DNA of 64,000 nucleotides from a virus, in the IMG/VR virus record IMGVR_UViG_3300036761_003567, positions 1 through 64,000 of that record. One strand, written 5' to 3'. The position numbers and the translations under genes were made by a program. A model generated the notes under the pieces. It had not been told where the DNA came from. It saw only the letters and a program-made list of their open reading frames with translations, and made no database searches. Positions 1,155-47,559 of the stretch are shown one piece after another. Each line of letters begins with the position of its first letter. The stretch's first letter is position 1.

Positions 1155-2023
1155 ATAGCCTCCAGCGCCATCTGTTTGACGTTGTTCTCGAACTTATATT
1201 TCTGCGTCCCCTTTTCCCACATCCGCCTGCCCATATCGGCCCATGGGCCATAATTGGATCTTACGGCTTCTTGTACAGTCTGGACCAGCATCTGAATAGA
1301 CGCGTCTGTGAAATCAACGTCTTCTTCGTAAGGGAATGGGTCAGCACACACTTCGCAGATGAGGGGTAATGCAAAAGCAGAGCAAACTGCGAATCTCAAA
1401 GGCTCGAATATAATATCGTTATCCTGGTGGACACAGTACATGAACTTCGTCGCCGAGAGGATCTTCTTCCTCTCCTCACCCCATGCGTTGGGAGATATCT
1501 TCAGACCCTTCATGCCGTTCAGGACCGGGACCCTCCGGCCGGCAACATAAGACATGTGCGTAATGTCGAACGTCTTCGTCGTGGGCGGAGTTCCGAGCCT
1601 CTCGTCACTGCCGACAGGAGCGAAAAGCGAGGGAATGTCGTTCTTGACCTTGTCGTAGATGGATCTGTCTGCGAACCAGAACTTGTCGAAGAGGTTAATG
1701 AGATCCAGCTTCCGTAGAACGCTCTTGAATTCTTCAATCGACCCATCTCCCGTCACTACGCCGCCGCCTTTCATGTCCAGGGGTGGCAAGATGCGTTCCA
1801 GGAATAACCAGACGATCTTGCAGGTCCTGGAAGCCTTCGGCCTCGCTTTCAGGGCCGAAATGACGCTCTCATTGACAGGACTGACGACATAGATACAATC
1901 CCTCTTGGGATCTATCTGGTTCTCGTTGCAGATCTCGAACCCGGACAGCTGCGTAAGGGATCTATAGTCCGCGTAGGACCCATACTCCTTGGCGGTGTGG
2001 ATGAAGACTACTTCCTTGGCCAT
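1151..2023 (-). CDS. Putative GT-B/CgeB-like glycosyltransferase
   Basis: C-terminal DITHMSY..GRR...NAWGEERKKIL...VHQD...EPLRF...ICE pattern resembles Glyco_trans_1_2-type domains. Confidence 0.55.
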   Translation of the reverse strand: MAKEVVFIHTAKEYGSYADYRSLTQLSGFEICNENQIDPKRDCIYVVSPVNESVISALKARPKASRTCKIVWLFLERILPPLDMKGGGVVTGDGSIEEFKSVLRKLDLINLFDKFWFADRSIYDKVKNDIPSLFAPVGSDERLGTPPTTKTFDITHMSYVAGRRVPVLNGMKGLKISPNAWGEERKKILSATKFMYCVHQDNDIIFEPLRFAVCSAFALPLICEVCADPFPYEEDVDFTDASIQMLVQTVQEAVRSNYGPWADMGRRMWEKGTQKYKFENNVKQMALEAI

Positions 2024-2099: not shown

Positions 2100-5021
2100 T
2101 TACTGTGGAACAACCACTCCGCCGGCGATCAGAACTTCCTGCGCGGTGAAGCTCTGGTCCGTCCTCATGACCACGAGGTTGAGGACGACGAATTCTGCCG
2201 CGCGCGTCGGCTTGATGAATATCGAAACCCAGAGCTCGTTGCGGTCGATCCTCTCCGGCGTGTTGTTGGTGTCGTCGCAGACGACCTTGAAGCCGTACAG
2301 GCCGCGCCGGGCCTGGACGTCCGCCAGGAGCGGCTGGGAGACGTCGACCACCTGCGCCCGGGTGAACCTGTCGTTCGGCTCGAACACGAAGTTCCGGAGC
2401 GTCCTGACCAGGATCTTCTTGAGGTAGATCAGCAGCATCCGGACGTTGACCCGATCCAGCGCGCTCGCCTTGCGCTGCAGCGTCCTCTGGCCCCAGACCG
2501 TGATCCCATCCTGCGTGAAGTTCACGATCGGGTTGACCGCGTTCCCGCTCCCGTAGAGCAGGTTCCGCTCACCGAGAGTCGTGTTGTACTCGACGTCGAG
2601 CGGGGTCAGCAGGTGGCCGCGGTTGAGGCCCGCCGGAGCGAACCACACTTCCGCGACGTTGGCCGTCTTGGCGTAGACGCCTGCCACGTGGCCCGAGGGC
2701 GGAACCCAGATGTTCTGGCCGGAGAACTGGTCGAAGATCTTCAGCCAGCTGTAGTAGAGGGCGCCGTACGAGGAGTTGATCGCGGTCGAGAGGTCGCTCG
2801 AGAGCATCCCGTTGTGCCACTCGACGACCTGCTGTGGGCGGAGGCCGTAGGGCGGATCGACGATGTAGATCATGTCGCCGCGGGACTCGCACAGCTGGAG
2901 TCCCTGGCCGATGACCGCGCCAGAGCTGATGCCCGGGATCAGCAGGATGTTGGTATCGTACTCGTCCGAGTTCTGGAAGGCGAACAGCCCACTGGAAAGG
3001 GCCGGGTTCCCGATGATGACCCGGTCCAGCTCCGAGCTGAAGGCCGAATCGGTCGGAATTCCGTTTGCCGTACCGTTGGCGCCGCTGGCACGCTCCCACT
3101 GGAAGGTGCGGCGGATAAGAGTGCCGGGGTTCCTGACCTCGAAGGCGATGCCGCCGCTGCCGGTCACGGTGACCGCCGGATCACTCCCGAGGAAGGCCGG
3201 CCGATCCTCGTAATTGTAGAACGAGCTCCCGTTCACGCCACCGATGGCGGAATTCTCGTTCACGACATTGCCGATCCAGCGCTCGTTACTCTCGTCGAAG
3301 CTGATGTTGTCGATGCTGTCCTGCGCGACTCCGGAGCCGTCGACGAGCGTCAGGACGTATTTGCCGACGTCCCCTGCCGACGCGCGGTTGGTATCGATCT
3401 GGAGAGTCAGGTAGGTCCCGTCGATCCAGGTGCCAGGCGACTTTGCCACGACCCAGCCGACGATGTTCTGGAAGTACTCGGTGTCGGTCAGGCACTGCGC
3501 GCTGCCGGGCGCCGTCTCGCAGGAAAGCGGCACAGACGGCGTGATGTTGCCGGGGTCCGGTAGTGACACGCGCGGGTCGCTGAACCCGCGGAAATTGCGG
3601 TAATACGGGTAAGGGATGCCAACCTCCTCGGCGAACCTGAGCGTCTCGATGTTGCTCGCCGAGGCCAGGAGCTGGAGGAGATCATACTGCGTATCGTCGG
3701 CGGTGATGATCGCCACCCTGACATCCCCGTCGGCCACGGTGATGGGGAAGCTCTCGTAATAGCGCATCCCGAGATAGAGCCCGGATGCGTGAATCGCAGC
3801 CGCGATCATCGCAGCCGTGACGTTGGGCCCCACAGGAAGCGAGATGCTGAAGTTATGGACGTTCGTGCCGCTGGTAACGGAGAGCTTGATCCTGTCATCC
3901 GCCGTGGTGATGACGAAGGGGCTGGGCTCGGTGCCCACCAGGCTGCTCCGGGGGATGTCATATGCCCAGAGCGAGGTCCCCACTTCGAGAGCGAACCCCT
4001 CAGTGTCGATGATCTGAATGCGGTGTCCGGCCGTCTCGGTCACGATCTGGGGAATCCCACCGGACTCAATAGCGCGGTACCGCACCGCGCTTGGCGTAGG
4101 AGCTCCAGCGGCCAGATTGAATGCGGTCACGAAGTCCGCGTTCGTGGTGTAGGAAGCGACCGGCATCGTGTAGGGACCGCCGGAGCCACCACCACTGATT
4201 CCCTCGACGGCGACGTCGAACACCCTGTTGTTGGGTGCGACGCTGAAGGTGAAGATGTCCCCGGCCTCGATCGGGCATCCGCCGACCACCAGGACGGCCC
4301 CGGTCAAGCCGGTGGCGTCGGCACCGGAACCGATGGCAAAGGCAGCCGAAGCGCCGACTGGCGCCCCAGTGTCGGTCAGCGTGCCGGTCTGAATAACTGC
4401 ACCGTCGCTGTTCCGGATGATCTGGTAGGTGGCATCCTGGACGCTCGGCGCGCCATAGGAGCCGCCAGGCCCTTCCGTGATCAGGATGATGAAGCTGTCG
4501 TCGACCGCGCCGGTGTAAGTCCCGGTGACGACCAGCGTCGCATTCACCACGCCACAGGAACCCGACGGATCCACGTCCGTGAATTCGGGGGCGGAAACAG
4601 ACGCATCGTGGAATTCGTAAGGAGCGTCCACGGTGCATTCCCGCAGACGAAGGCGACCCAGGTCGATGCCCTGGAAGAGCGGAATGCGGCCGTACCCCTC
4701 GACATTCGCACCGCTCGTGTCGATGCAGATGTCCGAAAGCTCCGTCGGCTGCCCCTGCTCGCATTCGACGCCCACGCGCAGCGTGAACATCTGGTTCCCC
4801 TGCTCGAAATACCCCAGGGCCGCGAAGCCCATGTAGGAATCGAGAATCGGGGTTCCGAAGGTGTTCACCCACTGCTCGGACGTCGACGTGAAGATAGGCC
4901 TGCCCAGCTTCCCTTTCTGGGCCGTGCCGATCATCGCCGGCATCGTAGGACCTGCGGCAGCCGGAAGCAGACTGATGTCGATCTCGCGCGGGAAGACGCC
5001 GGGGGAGAGGAATACGGGCAT
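2100..5021 (-). CDS. Contractile tail sheath protein (T4 gp18-like), 973 aa
   Basis: N-terminus FLSPGVFPREID; C-terminus VPPSG, WFAPAG.NRG, VNPI, VWGQRTL, ALDRVNVRMLL, FEPND, VVCDDTNN, IKPTRAAEF. GGAG RBS. Confidence 0.97.
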   Translation of the reverse strand: MPVFLSPGVFPREIDISLLPAAAGPTMPAMIGTAQKGKLGRPIFTSTSEQWVNTFGTPILDSYMGFAALGYFEQGNQMFTLRVGVECEQGQPTELSDICIDTSGANVEGYGRIPLFQGIDLGRLRLRECTVDAPYEFHDASVSAPEFTDVDPSGSCGVVNATLVVTGTYTGAVDDSFIILITEGPGGSYGAPSVQDATYQIIRNSDGAVIQTGTLTDTGAPVGASAAFAIGSGADATGLTGAVLVVGGCPIEAGDIFTFSVAPNNRVFDVAVEGISGGGSGGPYTMPVASYTTNADFVTAFNLAAGAPTPSAVRYRAIESGGIPQIVTETAGHRIQIIDTEGFALEVGTSLWAYDIPRSSLVGTEPSPFVITTADDRIKLSVTSGTNVHNFSISLPVGPNVTAAMIAAAIHASGLYLGMRYYESFPITVADGDVRVAIITADDTQYDLLQLLASASNIETLRFAEEVGIPYPYYRNFRGFSDPRVSLPDPGNITPSVPLSCETAPGSAQCLTDTEYFQNIVGWVVAKSPGTWIDGTYLTLQIDTNRASAGDVGKYVLTLVDGSGVAQDSIDNISFDESNERWIGNVVNENSAIGGVNGSSFYNYEDRPAFLGSDPAVTVTGSGGIAFEVRNPGTLIRRTFQWERASGANGTANGIPTDSAFSSELDRVIIGNPALSSGLFAFQNSDEYDTNILLIPGISSGAVIGQGLQLCESRGDMIYIVDPPYGLRPQQVVEWHNGMLSSDLSTAINSSYGALYYSWLKIFDQFSGQNIWVPPSGHVAGVYAKTANVAEVWFAPAGLNRGHLLTPLDVEYNTTLGERNLLYGSGNAVNPIVNFTQDGITVWGQRTLQRKASALDRVNVRMLLIYLKKILVRTLRNFVFEPNDRFTRAQVVDVSQPLLADVQARRGLYGFKVVCDDTNNTPERIDRNELWVSIFIKPTRAAEFVVLNLVVMRTDQSFTAQEVLIAGGVVVPQ

Positions 5022-5048
5022 TTGCGCGCTCCTTATTAGCCTTCTGAT

Positions 5049-9940: not shown

Positions 9941-9999
9941 AAGAGTTCTCCTGACATAGTTTTGCGGGGGCAGCCTGCAGGGACTATCAAAGATATGGC

Positions 10000-10753: not shown

Positions 10754-10796
10754 AGGATTATTCCTCTCATGGTTCCAATATAAATTTGCCAGATGA

Positions 10797-10825
10797 TTGA
10801 CGCAAAGGCGAAGCCCTGATATACT
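10797..10825 (+). promoter_or_regulatory. Host sigma70-type early promoter
   Basis: TTGACG-17 nt-TATACT with extended -10 TG; AAGGAG RBS follows. Confidence 0.8.
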
Positions 10826-10851: not shown

Positions 10852-11316
10852 ATGCTCGACTACAACAAGTTCTACCATCTGATCCTGCGCCCAGACGCAT
10901 CAAAATGGAACACGGAATCCAGCGCCCGAGTCATGCTCCACGTCATCCTCGGCTGGGACCGCGATCTCTGTGCGAAAGTCGCCAGTGGCTTCATCAAGAA
11001 GAAGCCGCAAATCCTCCTCACGGCACCCCTGGAAACCGTCGAGCATCTCGCCGTCAAGATTTCTGACTGGGGTATGTGGGGCTTCAAGGTCTCCATCAAG
11101 CCCGTCGCCGGCAATCCTGACGACGAAGAGCGGACCTGGTCCAGAGGACCCTGTTGCGTCAGCAAGCTGGCGAAGCCCATCAAAGATTGCCCGCCCTGCA
11201 GCGGTCCGCCCATCCATTCCAAGACCAATCTCGTACACGGTCGGGCATGCAAGTATTGGTATTGCGAGACTCACGCCAAGTGGGCCAAAAACGAATGTGC
11301 TAAGCGCCCCTTTTAA
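10852..11316 (+). CDS. Putative ClpS-like domain plus Cys/His-rich C-terminal domain
   Basis: YHLILRPD...VMLHVILG.....A......PQILLTAPLETVE...KVSIKP follows the ClpS pattern; C-terminal CC/CxxC/C..C..H. Confidence 0.45.
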   Translation: MLDYNKFYHLILRPDASKWNTESSARVMLHVILGWDRDLCAKVASGFIKKKPQILLTAPLETVEHLAVKISDWGMWGFKVSIKPVAGNPDDEERTWSRGPCCVSKLAKPIKDCPPCSGPPIHSKTNLVHGRACKYWYCETHAKWAKNECAKRPF

Positions 11317-16878: not shown

Positions 16879-17513
16879 TTTTGCCCTTTCTGCGGCATCC
16901 AGGTCAAGAAAATCCACTTCTTCGGATCTATTGGCCGATTGCCTTCGTTAATATGTCTCACGGCCGTCAAGAGCTGATCCTCGTTCGGGAAGAAGACGTC
17001 ATCCATGTCGCTGATCTTATCTACGAACATCGACACCAGCCACATGGATGGGACGCCGTCAGGACAGATGAACATGACGGGGGCGCCGGCCCTGGACAGG
17101 AGCGCCAGCTCTTCAAACGTCCCCACCGTGAATGGGCTCTTGGGCAGTCGGCAGATACACCAGTTTGTCGCATGGACCATCCGAAGGCAGACGTCCCTCT
17201 GAATATGCATGTCCTGGAGAGCCGCCTCGGCTTCGCCCTTCTCCGTTTCCACTTCCGAAGGCGGGACCAAGCGGCCCACAAAATTTGAACAAACCCTTGG
17301 CGTGCCAGGTCGACAAAAGAATTTCTCGTTGATGTCTGCCTGCGGCCGACGACCTCGAGGGCCGACCCATTCCGGCTTGACGAGGGGGTTGAGGACGATA
17401 ACGTCCATCCCGGACAATTCCTGCGTCAGCCGACTGCGCCATTCAGCTGCGTGAGGGTCCGCCTCCACAGGTCCACCTAAGTATACTGTCGTCCCGCTTA
17501 AAATACCCATCAT
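16875..17513 (-). CDS. Nucleoside 2-deoxyribosyltransferase / DNPH1-like N-glycosidase
   Basis: VYLGGP, WR, VLNP, GTFEE (catalytic Glu) and S.WL motifs. Confidence 0.7.
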   Translation of the reverse strand: MMGILSGTTVYLGGPVEADPHAAEWRSRLTQELSGMDVIVLNPLVKPEWVGPRGRRPQADINEKFFCRPGTPRVCSNFVGRLVPPSEVETEKGEAEAALQDMHIQRDVCLRMVHATNWCICRLPKSPFTVGTFEELALLSRAGAPVMFICPDGVPSMWLVSMFVDKISDMDDVFFPNEDQLLTAVRHINEGNRPIDPKKWIFLTWMPQKGQK

Positions 17514-17890
17514 TGTCTCATTTCTTTTAAGAATGCTTTCACTTCGTCATTGGTGTGCCTGTTTTTACCTAAATTTATAAATTGACAAACCAATTGCACA
17601 TTCCCGACGAGATATCCTCTCTTGCTGTCTATCCTATCAATAGAAATCGAAGCATGATTTCCGAGAGTGTGCATCATCTGCAAACCGCTTAAAGCACATT
17701 TTCCGTCTTGAGCTCCGTACAAGTCAATTAAATACTGGCATGTAATTGTGTCAGGTGCCGACCCTATTCTCGGCTTCGCTATTATGAATCTGTTTGTGAT
17801 AAAATTATGGGCTGACCGCTCTACCCATGCCGCTACTCTCCGTCTGTGTTCGGCTTTTTTCTCGGGAGTTAATTGTTTATACTTACCCAC
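17510..17890 (-). CDS. HNH-like (His-Me finger) endonuclease
   Basis: C..SG..M...SIDRIDS..GY..GNVQLVC.FIN..K; AT-rich. GTG start is uncertain. Confidence 0.7.
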   Translation of the reverse strand: MGKYKQLTPEKKAEHRRRVAAWVERSAHNFITNRFIIAKPRIGSAPDTITCQYLIDLYGAQDGKCALSGLQMMHTLGNHASISIDRIDSKRGYLVGNVQLVCQFINLGKNRHTNDEVKAFLKEMRQ

Positions 17891-18464
17891 GCCGCAATCC
17901 GGCCAAGAACTCCTTGGCGGCCTCATTGGTTCCAGAATACTTACCAAGATTTACAAATTGACACACAAGCTGGATATTACCACGCACATATCCAATACCA
18001 TTATCGATTCGGTCTATGGATATAGCATTAAGCTTTCCAATTTGGTGTACAAGCTTGACGCCAGACAGCGCACACCTGCCGCTTTGTCTTGCGTACAAGT
18101 CAGCTAAAAATCTCAGATCAACGTCCAACTTCAACGGCCTCCGAAACACATAGCGTCCGTCGGGTTTTTGATGCTTGCGAAGTCTAGTGCGTTTCTTGAT
18201 GCTACCATATAAACCTGCCAAGAAAGAGAATGGCGTCTTCTCTATGTTGTGCCTGTGCTTGAGCTGATAATATTCTCTCCTGGCAAAATAGCATTTACTC
18301 TTCGCGTGCGATATTCTCTCCTTATTTGCAATCCTATAAAGCTTCTTTTTGTTATTTGTACAAGTCTTGCACACAGATCCGTACCCACGCTCGTTCAATG
18401 AAAAATCCAGCGTTTGTTTGACAAACCCACACTTACTACACACCTTTGTATCTTTTTGTTCCAT
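17883..18464 (-). CDS. HNH-like endonuclease with N-terminal CxxC zinc finger
   Basis: CSKC/CKTC; CALSG...SIDRIDN..GY..GNIQLVC..VN..K; AT-rich. Confidence 0.75.
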   Translation of the reverse strand: MEQKDTKVCSKCGFVKQTLDFSLNERGYGSVCKTCTNNKKKLYRIANKERISHAKSKCYFARREYYQLKHRHNIEKTPFSFLAGLYGSIKKRTRLRKHQKPDGRYVFRRPLKLDVDLRFLADLYARQSGRCALSGVKLVHQIGKLNAISIDRIDNGIGYVRGNIQLVCQFVNLGKYSGTNEAAKEFLAGLRRG

Positions 18465-18710: not shown

Positions 18711-19709
18711 CTAGAGGTGGGACGCAGTTTCGAGGATGGTATCCACCGCGGTCTTTTGATCTAATCTGGAAAAGAATTGCAAGAAAGGGAAAGGGTTGTA
18801 CGTCGAACAGAATACGTATCGGCTTCTTTCCATTTCATTCAGATGTTTTGCGGCATACATGTAGCTGTCAGCTTCCTTTTCGAAGCGCGCCTTGCGGTTC
18901 CTATCGTCGACGTCCGGATTTGCTCCCCAGGGGTAGAGCTTCCCGTTGACGGCAGTCATATCGCAGCCGAAGATGTAGACCTTCGCGAAGTCCATGAAGT
19001 AAGCAATCTGCATTGCCGAATAGACGCTCGACCGACCGATATAGAAGCCCGCCTGGAGGTCCTTTGAGAAGCCTATGCCGGCGATGTGGCGTGCGATAAC
19101 CTGTCCCGGCCTCCTGTCGCGGACCGATCCGGAGTTGATGGGCGTACCAGTGAACGAGTTCCAGAGCTCTCGGTGCCTATCCAGTTGATTCTGGTCCACG
19201 AAGCACCAGTATTTCGTCGGCCAGATCCGCTTGTCTGGCTTATTAATGCTCATCAAGTCGATCCTGCTGTTGCCCTTCAGCCTCTCTAACGGTGCCTCCG
19301 TGTGTGATGGGCCATTGCCCACGATGACAAGGATCCGACCGTGGCCTATTCCCTTGAGCGCTGCGATGACCGGCCTGTAAGTCTGGAACATGTGGTCGCG
19401 GTCGCGTGCAACTTGAGAAAGTGCGCTGGACCGGCGAGCCACGTTGATGACGCTAGTCCTGAAGTTAGGCGGCGGCCGCGTCTGAAAATGGTGAGGAGGC
19501 GGGATGATGCCCATCCTCGGGCGCTGGAGCGTGGGAACCGCAGTACGACGAAACGAGACGGTCTGATTTACCGTCGGCGGCCTTGGGGCAGGAGGCGTCG
19601 GGAGGGCCAGAGCGAACGGGACCGGACGCTGAACGATGATTACAGCACCGGACCGTCTTACGGCTGGACGCGAAATGCGATATTGAATGACACTAGGTGC
19701 CTTAGGCAT
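18711..19709 (-). CDS. Maf/DUF115 (MptE-like or sialyltransferase-like) domain protein with Pro/Arg-rich N-terminus
   Basis: IVGNGPS, SIN, SSVYSAMQIAYFM.F..VYIFGCDM. Confidence 0.65.
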   Translation of the reverse strand: MPKAPSVIQYRISRPAVRRSGAVIIVQRPVPFALALPTPPAPRPPTVNQTVSFRRTAVPTLQRPRMGIIPPPHHFQTRPPPNFRTSVINVARRSSALSQVARDRDHMFQTYRPVIAALKGIGHGRILVIVGNGPSHTEAPLERLKGNSRIDLMSINKPDKRIWPTKYWCFVDQNQLDRHRELWNSFTGTPINSGSVRDRRPGQVIARHIAGIGFSKDLQAGFYIGRSSVYSAMQIAYFMDFAKVYIFGCDMTAVNGKLYPWGANPDVDDRNRKARFEKEADSYMYAAKHLNEMERSRYVFCSTYNPFPFLQFFSRLDQKTAVDTILETASHL

Positions 19710-19941
19710 GCTTTACGGTGCCGAGGCTCAGAACGTCCCCCGCAATCTTAGAGAGCGCTCCCGCCAGCCTCGAGGACTTCACGTCAGACGCCCGCGCGAC
19801 ATAAACCTTAAGTCCGCCTTCCTTGACGGTGATCATGAAGCTCTCTTCGGCGTTCTTTGCGATGGTGTTGAAGAGGTCCTCCTCCGTCGCGGGCGGAGCA
19901 AGACGCGCAAGAGCTTCTGTTATGGCCTTCTTAACGCTCAT
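19702..19941 (-). CDS. Hypothetical protein
   Basis: Start revised to MSVKK; overlaps both neighbours. Confidence 0.65.
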   Translation of the reverse strand: MSVKKAITEALARLAPPATEEDLFNTIAKNAEESFMITVKEGGLKVYVARASDVKSSRLAGALSKIAGDVLSLGTVKHA

Positions 19942-20395
19942 TATTTGACTTTTGATCAGGGTAATACTTGACAAGAGGCGTTCGGCATGTTAAAATGCGC
20001 CCAGTTTGAGGTTCGTTGAAGTGAGACAGGTTTTCGAAGGCTCGCCGGCCGTATTTCACAATCTTGCTGTTCTTGCGCTTTTCCGTTGTCTTGTGCGTAT
20101 AAAGGCAGCGGAACACGGCAGTCGTCAGCAAGTTGAAAACCGGCGCGCGTCCTGGGGTGAAAGTGAGAGTGCCCGCCCTGATCTTTCCCATCGTGTGGGC
20201 GAAGGCATGGTGAGCGAGCTCATCCAACTCATCTTCTGACTGCGGGTGAAATTGTGTTGCGACTCCTCGACAGATCTTATACACGTCATCTGACAGTGTC
20301 TTCCATGCCCGTCGGCTGTTCGTCCTATGGTAGGGATGCGTCAGCAGACACTGACTCCAATTCGCTTCCAGCATCTTCGTGTCTACGTAAGCCAT
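19931..20395 (-). CDS. Late-transcription sigma factor (T4 gp55-like)
   Basis: MAYVDTKML..., YKIC..VA..F, DEL...A, FTPGRAPVFNLLTTAVF..L....EKRK resembles the gp55 region-2 pattern; no region 4. Start revised to ATG 20395. Confidence 0.6.
   Translation of the reverse strand: MAYVDTKMLEANWSQCLLTHPYHRTNSRRAWKTLSDDVYKICRGVATQFHPQSEDELDELAHHAFAHTMGKIRAGTLTFTPGRAPVFNLLTTAVFRCLYTHKTTEKRKNSKIVKYGRRAFENLSHFNEPQTGRILTCRTPLVKYYPDQKSNNER
19968..19996 (+). promoter_or_regulatory. Near-consensus sigma70 promoter, antisense to the gp55-like gene
   Basis: TTGACA-17 nt-TAAAAT with extended -10 TG at 19988-19989. Confidence 0.75.
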
Positions 20396-20479
20396 GCTAT
20401 TGTCCTCAGGACTGAAATACCTAAAGCAACACAAAAGTTTCCTGTTTTATAGAGGTGGGGAAGAGGAGGAGGAGAGGGT

Positions 20480-21487
20480 ATGCAGCTAGCCCGTCTTTTT
20501 CTGCGCGGCTCTCTATGCAACAAGACGATGCGGGGTCTCTCGCGTACGCAGCAGCAGAATGTCCAGGGCATCGTAAACATGATCCTGTCGGATCCTGCCC
20601 TCACGCCGGCAAGACAGTCCTTCCTCCGCGCCCTTGGCAACACGATAGGGAACGAGTACAAGGACCCTTCGTTTGCCGACGAGGAGGCGATTATCGCAAT
20701 CTGGCGGGCCGTCGTCTCGGCGCTCTACCACAAGCCGATTCCGGGCGTGATAGAGAATGGGAAGCAGCGAAAGAAGTTCTTCCAGGAGTGGATCTTCAAC
20801 GCGCTCCGGCAGATCCTCAATGAGAACAAGATCCCACAGATCCGGACGACCAACACCGTCTGTGGCCTCAATACGAAAGTCGGAGCTCAGGTTCTCAGCG
20901 GGTTCCTCATGGACAGGAGCGTGCCGGTCACCTGCGTCCTGGCCCGGTCGGACAAGCATGTCGAAATCACGGCCGAAGTCCTTCGGCTCTCACTCAACGA
21001 GCTCCAAAGCCTCTGGCGCATTGAAAAGGTCCTGCGCAATAACGGCGTCAAGGTCGTCTATGACGACAAGCATTACAACGTCGTGCATATCAAGGCCGAC
21101 AAGGCCGAGGTCGTCGAAATGCAGATCCCGGCCGCGATCAATATCAAGCTCGTGAGCTTCGAGTCGAAGAAGGCTAATGAGGAAGACGACCGCCTTCGCT
21201 ACACGCTCGAGTACAAGATGGCGTCCGAGACGAGCGCCGCCGACCAGAGAAGGGTCGAATTCAACGACTTCGTCGAGCACCTCAAGGGTACGCTTCCTTC
21301 GGATGCCAAGGAAGTCCTTAAGATCATCGTGAAGCCGCCCCAGGTTTATGTCCGGAAGCACGGCGACGACGTCCGACAGAAGACCGTTGCCAATTTCCTG
21401 CGGAAGACGCCCAAGGAGATGGCCCGGATCTTCGACCTCATCCGGCTGCAGTGCTTGGGGGCGGGCTACACGATCGACAAGACATGA
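20480..21487 (+). CDS. Putative sigma70-family factor (region 2 plus region 4 HTH)
   Basis: EEAIIAIWRAV...KKFFQEWIFNALRQIL (region 2-like); LPSDAKEVL...QKTVANFL.KT.KE...I (region 4-like); strong GGAGG RBS. Confidence 0.5.
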   Translation: MQLARLFLRGSLCNKTMRGLSRTQQQNVQGIVNMILSDPALTPARQSFLRALGNTIGNEYKDPSFADEEAIIAIWRAVVSALYHKPIPGVIENGKQRKKFFQEWIFNALRQILNENKIPQIRTTNTVCGLNTKVGAQVLSGFLMDRSVPVTCVLARSDKHVEITAEVLRLSLNELQSLWRIEKVLRNNGVKVVYDDKHYNVVHIKADKAEVVEMQIPAAINIKLVSFESKKANEEDDRLRYTLEYKMASETSAADQRRVEFNDFVEHLKGTLPSDAKEVLKIIVKPPQVYVRKHGDDVRQKTVANFLRKTPKEMARIFDLIRLQCLGAGYTIDKT

Positions 21488-26095: not shown

Positions 26096-26158
26096 GTGGA
26101 TCATATTCAGCCTCCTGGACCCGTTCCACTAAAATACGCCACGTATTTCACTTTTCAC

Positions 26159-35080: not shown

Positions 35081-35129
35081 CTTATATACGTTTACACCGG
35101 CTACCCGCTTCCTCTCGTATTTCATCAAC

Positions 35130-47012: not shown

Positions 47013-47527
47013 TTTGCAGCTTTTAGGGCCTTGTCCCTCTCAGGTTGTGGGTTTGGCCCGCCCCCGGTCCAGGGCGGCTCGTGAGACATTTCGTGCTTGT
47101 CGGCATTGGAGGTGAGGTCGACCAGCTCGTCCATCCGCGGATTCCAGCCAGCAGCCCTCTCTCCGCCCTCCACCAGCTCCTTGATAACCTTGTCGACTGA
47201 CTTCAGGGCGAGGTCGCGGTCCTCTTGCGGGAGGCCCATGGAGCGCATTTCGGTGTCCATCGCCAGCTTGAACGTCGGATCGTCGATGTACTTGTGGCAG
47301 TGAACCTTGCTGAATGCGGCAGTGAGGGAGTCGGCGAACTTACTTTCGGAGATCGCAAGCTGGTACATATCGTCGATGGTCTCTCGATGGAACTGCATGA
47401 AGTGAGAAGACTCCCGCTTCACCTGGTCCGGCTTGTGATAAGCCAGACCTAGCCTAGCATCCTGGTGCAACATGTTGCGGACGGCTTCCAGGAGGAGCTT
47501 CTCACTAGCGTTCATGGCAGTCTCCAT
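47009..47527 (-). CDS. Hypothetical protein
   Basis: TCAAAGATAT motif upstream. Confidence 0.75.
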   Translation of the reverse strand: METAMNASEKLLLEAVRNMLHQDARLGLAYHKPDQVKRESSHFMQFHRETIDDMYQLAISESKFADSLTAAFSKVHCHKYIDDPTFKLAMDTEMRSMGLPQEDRDLALKSVDKVIKELVEGGERAAGWNPRMDELVDLTSNADKHEMSHEPPWTGGGPNPQPERDKALKAAK

Positions 47528-47559
47528 TTAATGGTCAACATATCTTTGAGGAAGGCTTT

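Follow-up and report, generated by a model that had tools for sequence, protein, structure and literature searches.

A Conserved Promoter-like Element Antisense to a gp55-like Gene at a Divergent Pair of Sigma-like Genes in Uncultured Jumbo Phages

Results

The Divergent Gene Pair

The stretch of DNA analyzed in this work (the window) comprises 64,000 nucleotides (nt) of the IMG/VR record IMGVR_UViG_3300036761_003567, a 107-kilobase (kb) record whose estimated completeness is 29%. Our subject is a pair of divergent genes, hereafter A and B, together with a promoter-like element that is located at the 3' end of A and directed back across this gene toward B. Gene A (minus strand, 20395..19931, with the ATG at 20395 and the stop at 19931-19933) is predicted from its open reading frame (ORF), an AlphaFold2 model, and a structural match to encode a gp55-like factor of 154 amino acids (aa) having sigma region 2 only. 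Gene B (plus strand, 20480..21487) is predicted on the same kinds of evidence to encode a sigma-like factor of 335 aa, and a purine-rich Shine-Dalgarno run, GAGGAGGAGGAGA, can be read in the sequence before its ATG (20463..20475, plus strand). The two genes diverge across a gap of 84 nt. A gp55-like gene on the minus strand diverging from a sigma-like gene with regions 2 and 4 on the plus strand had been proposed in a first-pass annotation of this DNA, and both the coordinates and the predicted folds agree with that proposal.

The phage of the window is a jumbo myophage of an uncultured clade, whose genes include those for a tail sheath, a PurZ-like protein, gp46/gp47-like SbcCD proteins, helicases, and a DnaE-type polymerase. 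In the first 26 kb of the window nearly all the genes are on the minus strand, and gene B is one of two lone plus-strand genes. The relatives compared are 7 IMG/VR records and 80 metagenome loci (87 loci in all), the gene order of which was followed by tblastn; one of them is a complete, terminally repeated genome of 395 kb. About 75 of the 87 loci share a single gene order (332-aa gene, the 79-aa gene in brackets, A, divergent B, 168-aa gene, gp46), on contigs of up to 395 kb and with a guanine plus cytosine (G+C) content ranging from 27 to 61%, and the gap between A and B is short (40-100 nt) in nearly all the loci. No match to A or B was obtained by tblastn among 50,697 GenBank phage records, and we found no paper in the literature on the A/B pair or on the bipartite element described below.

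Predicted Folds of the Two Proteins

The A family includes at least nine proteins and was located at 109 metagenomic loci. The AlphaFold2 model of A (predicted local distance difference test, pLDDT, 78.9) contains a four-helix domain spanning residues 6-125, whereas residues ~130-154, which overlap the promoter, form a weakly conserved tail predicted to be disordered (pLDDT below 50 from residue 130). The top rows of the Foldseek search of A were all sigma region 2 domains and T4 gp55. When the model was re-aligned, 50 of the 50 top rows corresponded to sigma region 2 and T4 gp55 (7d7c_F) ranked first, with Z 11.4 and a root-mean-square deviation (rmsd) of 4.2 over 119/137 residues (model residues 3-132). 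At the sequence level, neither A alone nor its family profile gave a significant match in Pfam, PHROGs, or the PDB, gp55 included; comparing the A family by hhalign with T4 gp55 (E 0.096 over 16 columns only) and with the B family yielded nothing, and the score of A globally aligned to gp55 did not exceed that of shuffled sequences (z = -0.5). The motifs YV[DN]xKxL, near the N-terminus, and LTTAxF...EKRK, some 81-83 residues further on, look gp55-like by eye and are not counted here as evidence. Gene A adjoins gp46/gp47-like genes, as T4 gene 55 does. The model thus supports the assignment of A as a gp55-like sigma with region 2 only, and the support from the predicted fold is stronger than for B. 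A longer form of A (~240-250 aa) is found in P0009, L047, L029, L038, and other relatives, with an insertion of ~70-100 residues after an N-terminal KYCD..LE motif.

The B family has 244 representatives (clusters at 50% identity). The AlphaFold2 model of B (pLDDT 74.9) suggests a region-2-like helical domain (residues ~20-119), a ferredoxin-like alpha/beta insert (~122-206), a disordered acidic linker (220-256), and a region-4-like helix-turn-helix domain (~252-331), with no sigma3 domain. A structural search independent of Foldseek, with which the Foldseek results agree, matched residues 252-331 to region 4 of sigma-H (3mzy_A; Z 8.6, rmsd 2.4, 19% identity), as well as to SigF (rmsd 1.9), SigD, and region 4 of sigmaE bound to -35 DNA (Z 7.1), and in this way found the region 4 helix-turn-helix of the sigma70 family in B. 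Residues 20-119 matched the N-terminal domain of SigE (8b3z_A; Z 7.3, 80/80 aligned), SigR and SigW (region 2 set, Z 6.2-7.3), and pro-sigmaK, at Z values that are common for helical domains. Both ends taken together match sigmaB, sigmaL, sigma28, AlgU, and sigma32 (whole sigmaB, sigmaL, and sigma28 span residues 18-333), and the middle domain matches ferredoxin-like folds; the Foldseek "viral" library returned weak rows only. As for sequence, B gave no significant Pfam, PHROG, or PDB match, either alone or as a family profile, and the Sigma70_r2, Sigma70_r3, and Sigma70_r4 profiles did not match the B of the window; a search of the 29%-complete contig with PF04542 (Sigma70_r2) found no match, and 55 members of the B family gave isolated sub-threshold matches only (Sigma70_r3 in two, 0.0025; Sigma70_ECF in one, 0.03). 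On the whole, the model supports the idea that B is a sigma-like factor with a region 4, a putative region 2, and an alpha/beta insert. Hence, of the sigma nature attributed to both proteins in the first-pass annotation, the folds were recovered by Foldseek and structural search, whereas a link to sigma families through sequence profiles was not. Some B homologs carry zinc-ribbon inserts or are 400-600 aa long.

The Putative Promoter Antisense to Gene A

A promoter of the form TTGACA-17-TGnTAAAAT had been reported within the 3' end of the gp55-like gene, and it is indeed present at 19968..19996 (plus strand, antisense to A and directed toward B; 11/12 plus TG). Its -35 box TTGACA occupies 19968-19973 and is followed, after a spacer of 17 nt that includes the TG at 19988-19989, by the -10 box TAAAAT at 19991-19996. 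The promoter overlaps the final 22 codons of A, its extended -10 comes on top of the score of 11/12, and its start is predicted near A20003. It has the sequence features of a sigma70-type extended -10 promoter (a 6/6 -35 box, a spacer of 17 nt, TG, A at position -11, and T at -7), and among the sigma70-type matches of the 107-kb contig, TTGACA-17-TGtTAAAAT ranks first.

In the part of the window from 15 to 25 kb, the number of promoter-like sites is not above expectation (4 observed versus 4.6 expected); across the 107-kb contig, sites scoring at least 11/12 number 4 versus 0.33 expected, a 12-fold excess. The combination of TTGACN, a spacer of 17-18 nt, TG, and A at -11 is found at five contig sites, all on the plus strand (10797, 19968, 71156, 95824, and 98945). 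The four besides 19968 (10797-10825 in the window and contig positions 71156, 95824, and 98945; TTGACN-17/18-TGnTAnA[A/C]T) are intergenic and lie directly upstream of plus-strand ORFan genes (10852-11316, 71212-71964, 95899-96510, and 98993-99400, respectively), for which no convincing Pfam or PHROG match was obtained, the best being one PHROG of unknown function (E 0.0049). Since these four sites are correctly placed, the phage of the window appears to use this type of promoter, of which the one at 19968 is the best example; the sites are probably a host-read early class.

Because the promoter lies behind A and points back, any transcript from it would cover all of A in antisense and then arrive at B. 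The predicted leader of the B transcript (20003..20479, plus strand, 477 nt) would be complementary to A codons 1 to ~131, to the ribosome-binding site of A, and to its upstream motif. Neither a terminator-like site nor a hairpin with a T-run after it was found in this leader, and no antisense ORF behind the promoter is shared among the relatives; in the 84-nt gap of the window there is no B-directed sigma70-like promoter scoring 9/12 or more. The proposal of a transcript running antisense through A and then reaching B therefore holds as DNA architecture.

Conservation of the Element in Relatives

Conservation was counted over distinct loci (74 for the bipartite element and 66 for the GTATTTnA box upstream of A) and over 45 lineages defined at 70% identity. 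A near-consensus scan, requiring a score of at least 11.5 on a scale of 12 plus TG plus spacing and A at -11, found an antisense promoter at the 3' end of A in 9 of the 45 lineages versus 1 on the sense strand, the control being 6 of 1530 windows (binomial P ~1e-13). The promoters scoring at least 12.5 were all clustered at the 3' end of A, with a positional peak 0-100 nt past its stop. The requirement for A at -11 hid most carriers (e.g., L001). When this position was left free (exact TTGACA-N17-TNNA[AC]T at the 3' end of A), the element was found in 38 of the 74 distinct loci versus 5 matches in 675 kb elsewhere (background 0.002 per window), one of these five being the same A-end site just beyond the counting window. 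The consensus of 45 distinct elements is cTTGACA-N14-TG-n-T[C/T/A][T/A]A[A/C]T: the positions of TTGACA are conserved at 91-100% and those of TG at 96-98%, though the latter was outside the search pattern (TG is present in 35 of the 38 carrier loci), and the spacer is fixed at 17 nt while its sequence is free.

In nearly all carriers, the -10 box and the TG overlap the last conserved codons of A (I-[K/R/L]-x). The residue over the TG varies (T, A, S, or P, through nCA codons), and the CA is invariant. Since the spacer length and the TG are fixed while the overlapping codons vary, the constraint acts on the DNA and not on the protein. The -35 box lies 14-29 nt past the stop of A in most lineages and within A in the window and in the L039-L055 group; thus, the promoter of the window looks "embedded" because the frame of A in this lineage continues across the -35 box. 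The distance from the element to B tracks the length of A and ranges from 418 to 1085 nt.

Carriers are found on both deep branches of the A tree, a distribution that requires, when the element is defined strictly, no fewer than 6-8 events of gain or loss, and the form of the element is constant across phages of 33-61% G+C. In the complete 395-kb relative, the element (with up to one mismatch) is present only at the A/B locus, in two tandem copies 213 nt apart; spacer-18 variants in this genome, and matches in the other, partial genomes, are at background level. A tandem pair occurs in L018 as well. In relatives at 97-99% nucleotide identity, which are too similar to be informative, the promoter and the two GTATTTCA copies discussed below are preserved; in P0002-P0004 (62-70% identity), the tail contains a conserved peptide, RI[IL][TA]C...LVK, that could accommodate the promoter, as judged by back-translation only. 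These data support the conclusion that the antisense promoter is a conserved, position-specific element of the A/B locus in many diverged relatives.

The GTATTTnA Box

The word GTATTTCA occurs in 10 copies in the window versus 1.2 expected (8-fold). GTATTT[C/A/T]A boxes lie 5-50 nt upstream of many same-strand starts, and several of them sit in co-directional gene runs, by which their orientation is fixed. One GTATTTCA copy (20413..20420, minus strand), a promoter-like single box of the GTATTTnA class, lies 17 nt before the ATG of A; another one, encoded by the V-K-Y codons of A (20051..20058, plus strand, antisense to A), is probably due to chance. Both sites are located as the first-pass annotation had claimed (20051-20058, plus; 20420-20413, minus), and only the copy upstream of A is conserved: GTATTTnA is found there in 31 of the 66 distinct relatives versus ~2 expected, with close variants in 19 more. 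Antisense GTATTTCA copies inside A amount, across the clade, to 8 matches, 4 of which come from one lineage, versus 6.8 expected, that is, chance. As conservation of the internal copy at 20051 does not extend outside the lineage of the window, this copy was rejected as a conserved promoter, and with it we dropped the step in which the "middle sigma" was proposed to amplify itself, since that step rested on this copy.

No conserved -35 partner was found for GTATTTnA, which in form is thus nearer to gp55-type late promoters than to promoters of two-domain sigmas. As far as its sequence suggests, a region-2-only factor such as A may fit as its reader at least as well as B.

GTATTT[C/A/T]A boxes located 5-50 nt before starts are found in the window at 26130-26150, 35117, 45917, 47797, 51820, 53518, and 62601, and in the rest of the contig at 65043, 67473, 68790, 75118, 75194, 87376, and 95811. 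At 35117, 45917, 51820, 68790, and 26143, the box lies just 5-8 nt from the predicted start codon. A ribosome-binding site would not fit into so short an interval, and the messages may thus be almost leaderless.

Other Features of the Region

Downstream of A, the conserved right-hand neighborhood of the gene is made up of the 79-aa gene (19702..19941, minus strand), whose ATG (19941) overlaps the last codons of A, and the 332-aa gene (18711-19709, minus strand), which is the downstream neighbor of A at nearly all loci. The latter has only weak MptE-like and sialyltransferase-like matches, and its first ~100 residues are proline-rich and may be non-coding. Further on, two minus-strand ORFs at 17510-18464 (145 and 193 aa, the latter cysteine-rich at its N-terminus) were missed by a codon-usage model trained on the contig and may represent a mobile or foreign insert, e.g., a homing endonuclease.

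Other promoter-like words were also observed. A TTGACA-16-TACAAT site (11/12, without TG) at 1872-1899 (plus strand) lies within the minus-strand gene 1151-2023, antisense toward the tail sheath gene (2100-5021), and may be either a second "anti-late" promoter or a chance match. The A-rich words CAAA[G/T]ATAT and CAAATATAAT at 5030-5045, 9985-9996, 10755-10775, and 47520-47555, upstream of the tail sheath gene and of other structural or divergent genes, may constitute a third promoter class. A repeated word, (C)TGCACGTTCACTCG, is located 60-80 nt upstream of three small plus-strand genes (contig 83700-83745, 84495-84540, and 85300-85330), and a similar word, GTGCA(A)CGTTCAC, 25-35 nt upstream of B in the subclade formed by L036, L037, L056, L075, and L080. 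Lastly, a palindrome, GTATTTAAATAC, at contig 70582-70600, within the minus-strand gene 70128-70859, corresponds to two GTATTTAA boxes back to back.

Discussion

The organization of the A/B locus corresponds to the geometry of an excludon, in which the promoter of one divergent gene lies beyond the other gene and the resulting leader is antisense to it; this correspondence concerns the DNA architecture only. As an architecture read from the sequence, such excludon-like wiring, with a putative promoter antisense through A into B, is well supported. On this basis we suggest, with a confidence slightly better than even, that the locus is a transcription-factor control module with an excludon-type toggle between two sigma factors. 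Transcription would start near 20003 and first yield 477 nt of RNA antisense to the whole of A, with the upstream motif and the ribosome-binding site of this gene included, before continuing into the mRNA of B. While the antisense promoter fires, B would be made and A would be lowered by head-on transcription and RNA pairing; once firing stops, the GTATTTCA box of A itself, which faces the opposite way, could act, and A would be switched on. The transcription start, the read-through into B, the repression of A, and the temporal order (B early, A later) are what we infer from this arrangement, and the same applies to which of the two factors would read GTATTTnA. In the first-pass annotation the two sigmas were called "middle" and "late", names that are assumptions.

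Several observations weigh against this interpretation. About half of the loci are without the exact element, and the location of the promoter behind A could reflect a lack of room in the short A-B gap instead of selection. Both proteins are sigma-like by predicted fold only, given that sequence methods link neither of them to sigma families, and the Z values of B (7-8.6) fall where the tool flags helical domains as commonly scoring. Moreover, profiles of gp33 and gp45 (PF16805 and PF09116) had no match in the 29%-complete contig. Finally, position -11 of the element is T or C in ~75% of the carrier relatives (TTTAAT, TCTAAT, TCTACT).

The last point bears on which factor might read the element. 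A T or C at -11 is not tolerated by canonical sigma70, and in primary-type sigmas it is normally region 3.0 that reads the TG conserved here. With A at -11, the element of the window is compatible, judging from its bases, with host sigma70; A is found at this position in the window, in all the TG-extended sites of its contig, and in about a quarter of the carrier lineages, and does not characterize the clade as a whole. The prevalence of T and C is hard to square with the host primary sigma as the reader, which may instead be a phage factor. In addition, the base at -11 flips between close relatives while all the other positions of the element stay fixed. This points to a reader for which the base at -11 does not matter, perhaps B itself in an autoregulatory role. 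A crude comparison of the -11 base with the residues of the N-terminal domain of B revealed no clean covarying column. All in all, we regard the host sigma as a fairly probable reader of the element and a phage factor as a doubtful one.

If the second of these possibilities were correct, the phage sigma B, or some other phage factor, might have the element as its cognate promoter, the sigma70 consensus being only mimicked, and the locus would combine positive autoregulation with antisense transcription through A, the host sigma providing at most the first spark. This is consistent with the behavior of position -11 just described and with the constancy of the element in phages of 33-61% G+C, and the region-2-like and region-4-like domains of B would suit a -35/-10 promoter of fixed spacing. 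However, in the complete 395-kb relative the element exists only at the A/B locus, and a sigma having its own promoter as its sole regulon is implausible; the model of B is without the sigma3 domain, whereas reading of the TG would normally need region 3.0; position -11 is always A in the window and at the four other contig sites; and no residue of B tracks the base at -11. We consider this explanation unlikely. To a similar degree we doubt that the element is a real early promoter for B which lies behind A as a mere consequence of packing, with antisense transcription over A being tolerated and having no regulatory role. It is true that the gap of 40-100 nt is filled by the promoter box of A and two ribosome-binding sites, that the element is always in the first available stretch past A, and that its absence from about half of the lineages implies that the arrangement is dispensable. 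Nevertheless, the divergent A/B order is kept in ~75 of the 87 loci over deep divergence, and the promoter is kept even where it overlaps the coding sequence of A (in nearly all carriers with its -10 box and TG, and in the window and the L039-L055 group with its -35 box as well); furthermore, strong convergent transcription over a gene of 0.4-1 kb is known to interfere, as for lambda paQ (PMC2327240).

It might also be argued that the promoter match and the GTATTTCA words are chance occurrences in coding DNA and that A and B are not transcription factors at all, an idea to which the lack of enrichment of promoter-like sites in the 10-kb neighborhood and the lack of sequence-level matches of either protein to sigma families could lend some credit. 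We consider it highly improbable, in view of the position-specific conservation of the element, seen in 38 of 74 loci when the background is 0.002 per window, of GTATTTnA upstream of A in 31 of 66 relatives versus ~2 expected, of gp55 as the top structural match of A, and of the region 4 and region-2-like sigma domains matched in B without Foldseek. At the opposite end, a bolder form of the toggle can be imagined, which we put forward only tentatively: a clade-wide, hard-wired two-sigma toggle, in which a near genome-unique promoter would launch the master sigma B antisense through A and would be read in part by the phage's own sigma (hence the tolerance at -11). Such a loop would sustain itself and keep the second sigma silent for as long as it is not interrupted.

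Returning to the toggle between the two sigma factors, its parts can be compared with known systems. To our knowledge, T4 gene 55 is not paired with a divergent sigma gene, nor is an antisense promoter known for it. The late sigma that it encodes, gp55, acts together with gp33 and the gp45 clamp (PMC2988020, PMC7892883, PDB 7D7C). Protein A resembles gp55, its best structural match, in being small and in consisting of a sigma region 2 fold, with neither region 3 nor region 4; the genomic position near gp46/gp47-like genes is also shared, and the candidate single-box, -35-less GTATTTnA class of the window phage is comparable to the 8-bp TATAAATA of T4. It differs in having no detectable sequence similarity to gp55, no PHROG or Pfam membership, and no recognizable clamp-binding C-terminus. 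As regards B, its region-2-like and region-4-like domains joined by a flexible linker recall extracytoplasmic function (ECF)/group 4 and other two-domain sigmas (sigmaE, SigH, sigma28), whereas the ferredoxin-like domain located where sigma3 or a linker would be, and the failure of the Sigma70_r2/r3/r4 profiles to reach significance, set it apart from them. Jumbo phages without their own RNA polymerase ("group 2") have been described as carrying a "minimal" and a "more complete" sigma (PMC7824862); B has no relative in GenBank phages.

In functional terms, the nearest precedents by analogy might be the Listeria excludon and lambda paQ. In the former, the long leader of one mRNA is antisense to a divergent neighbor, so that a single promoter activates one of the genes and lowers the expression of the other. 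In the latter, an antisense promoter within or behind the late-activator gene Q lowers Q and delays late expression (PMC2327240); here too an antisense promoter lies at a gene for a (predicted) late-transcription factor, although paQ needs CII and the promoter at 19968 looks constitutive and consensus-like. What distinguishes the A/B locus from both is that the two genes are sigma-like and that the predicted antisense RNA apparently doubles as the mRNA for the partner regulator. A host-read promoter launching a phage transcription factor that redirects RNA polymerase is, on the other hand, reminiscent of SPO1 and T7, as is the near-unique strong host-type promoter before the master regulator in the complete relative. 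The A1-A3 host promoters of T7 drive gene 1. In SPO1, the sigma cascade proceeds from gp28 to gp33/34 (PMC13401047). The regulator genes of these two phages, however, are not arranged head-to-head with an antisense overlap, and the order B before A is, in our case, a proposed one.

What is new here is the clade-wide conservation of the divergent A/B pair and of the antisense element. The predicted folds, together with the clade-wide conservation of the antisense promoter and of the upstream box of A, turn what was a speculative reading into a well-founded, testable model. Apart from T4 and SPO1, little has been learned about how giant phages that have no RNA polymerase of their own time their gene expression, and this work adds two new sigma-like protein families that standard annotation had missed (B with ~244 clusters at 50% identity and A at 109 metagenomic loci). 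The anomaly at position -11 can serve as a probe, in that it implies either a host sigma that accepts a base other than A at this site or a phage sigma whose recognition mimics the host consensus, and GTATTTnA is a candidate phage-specific promoter class that would be useful for annotating the genomes of this clade. Finally, the locus suggests a regulatory design in which one conserved promoter should switch one sigma on and the other one down, common to dozens of uncultured phages with genomes of up to ~395 kb.

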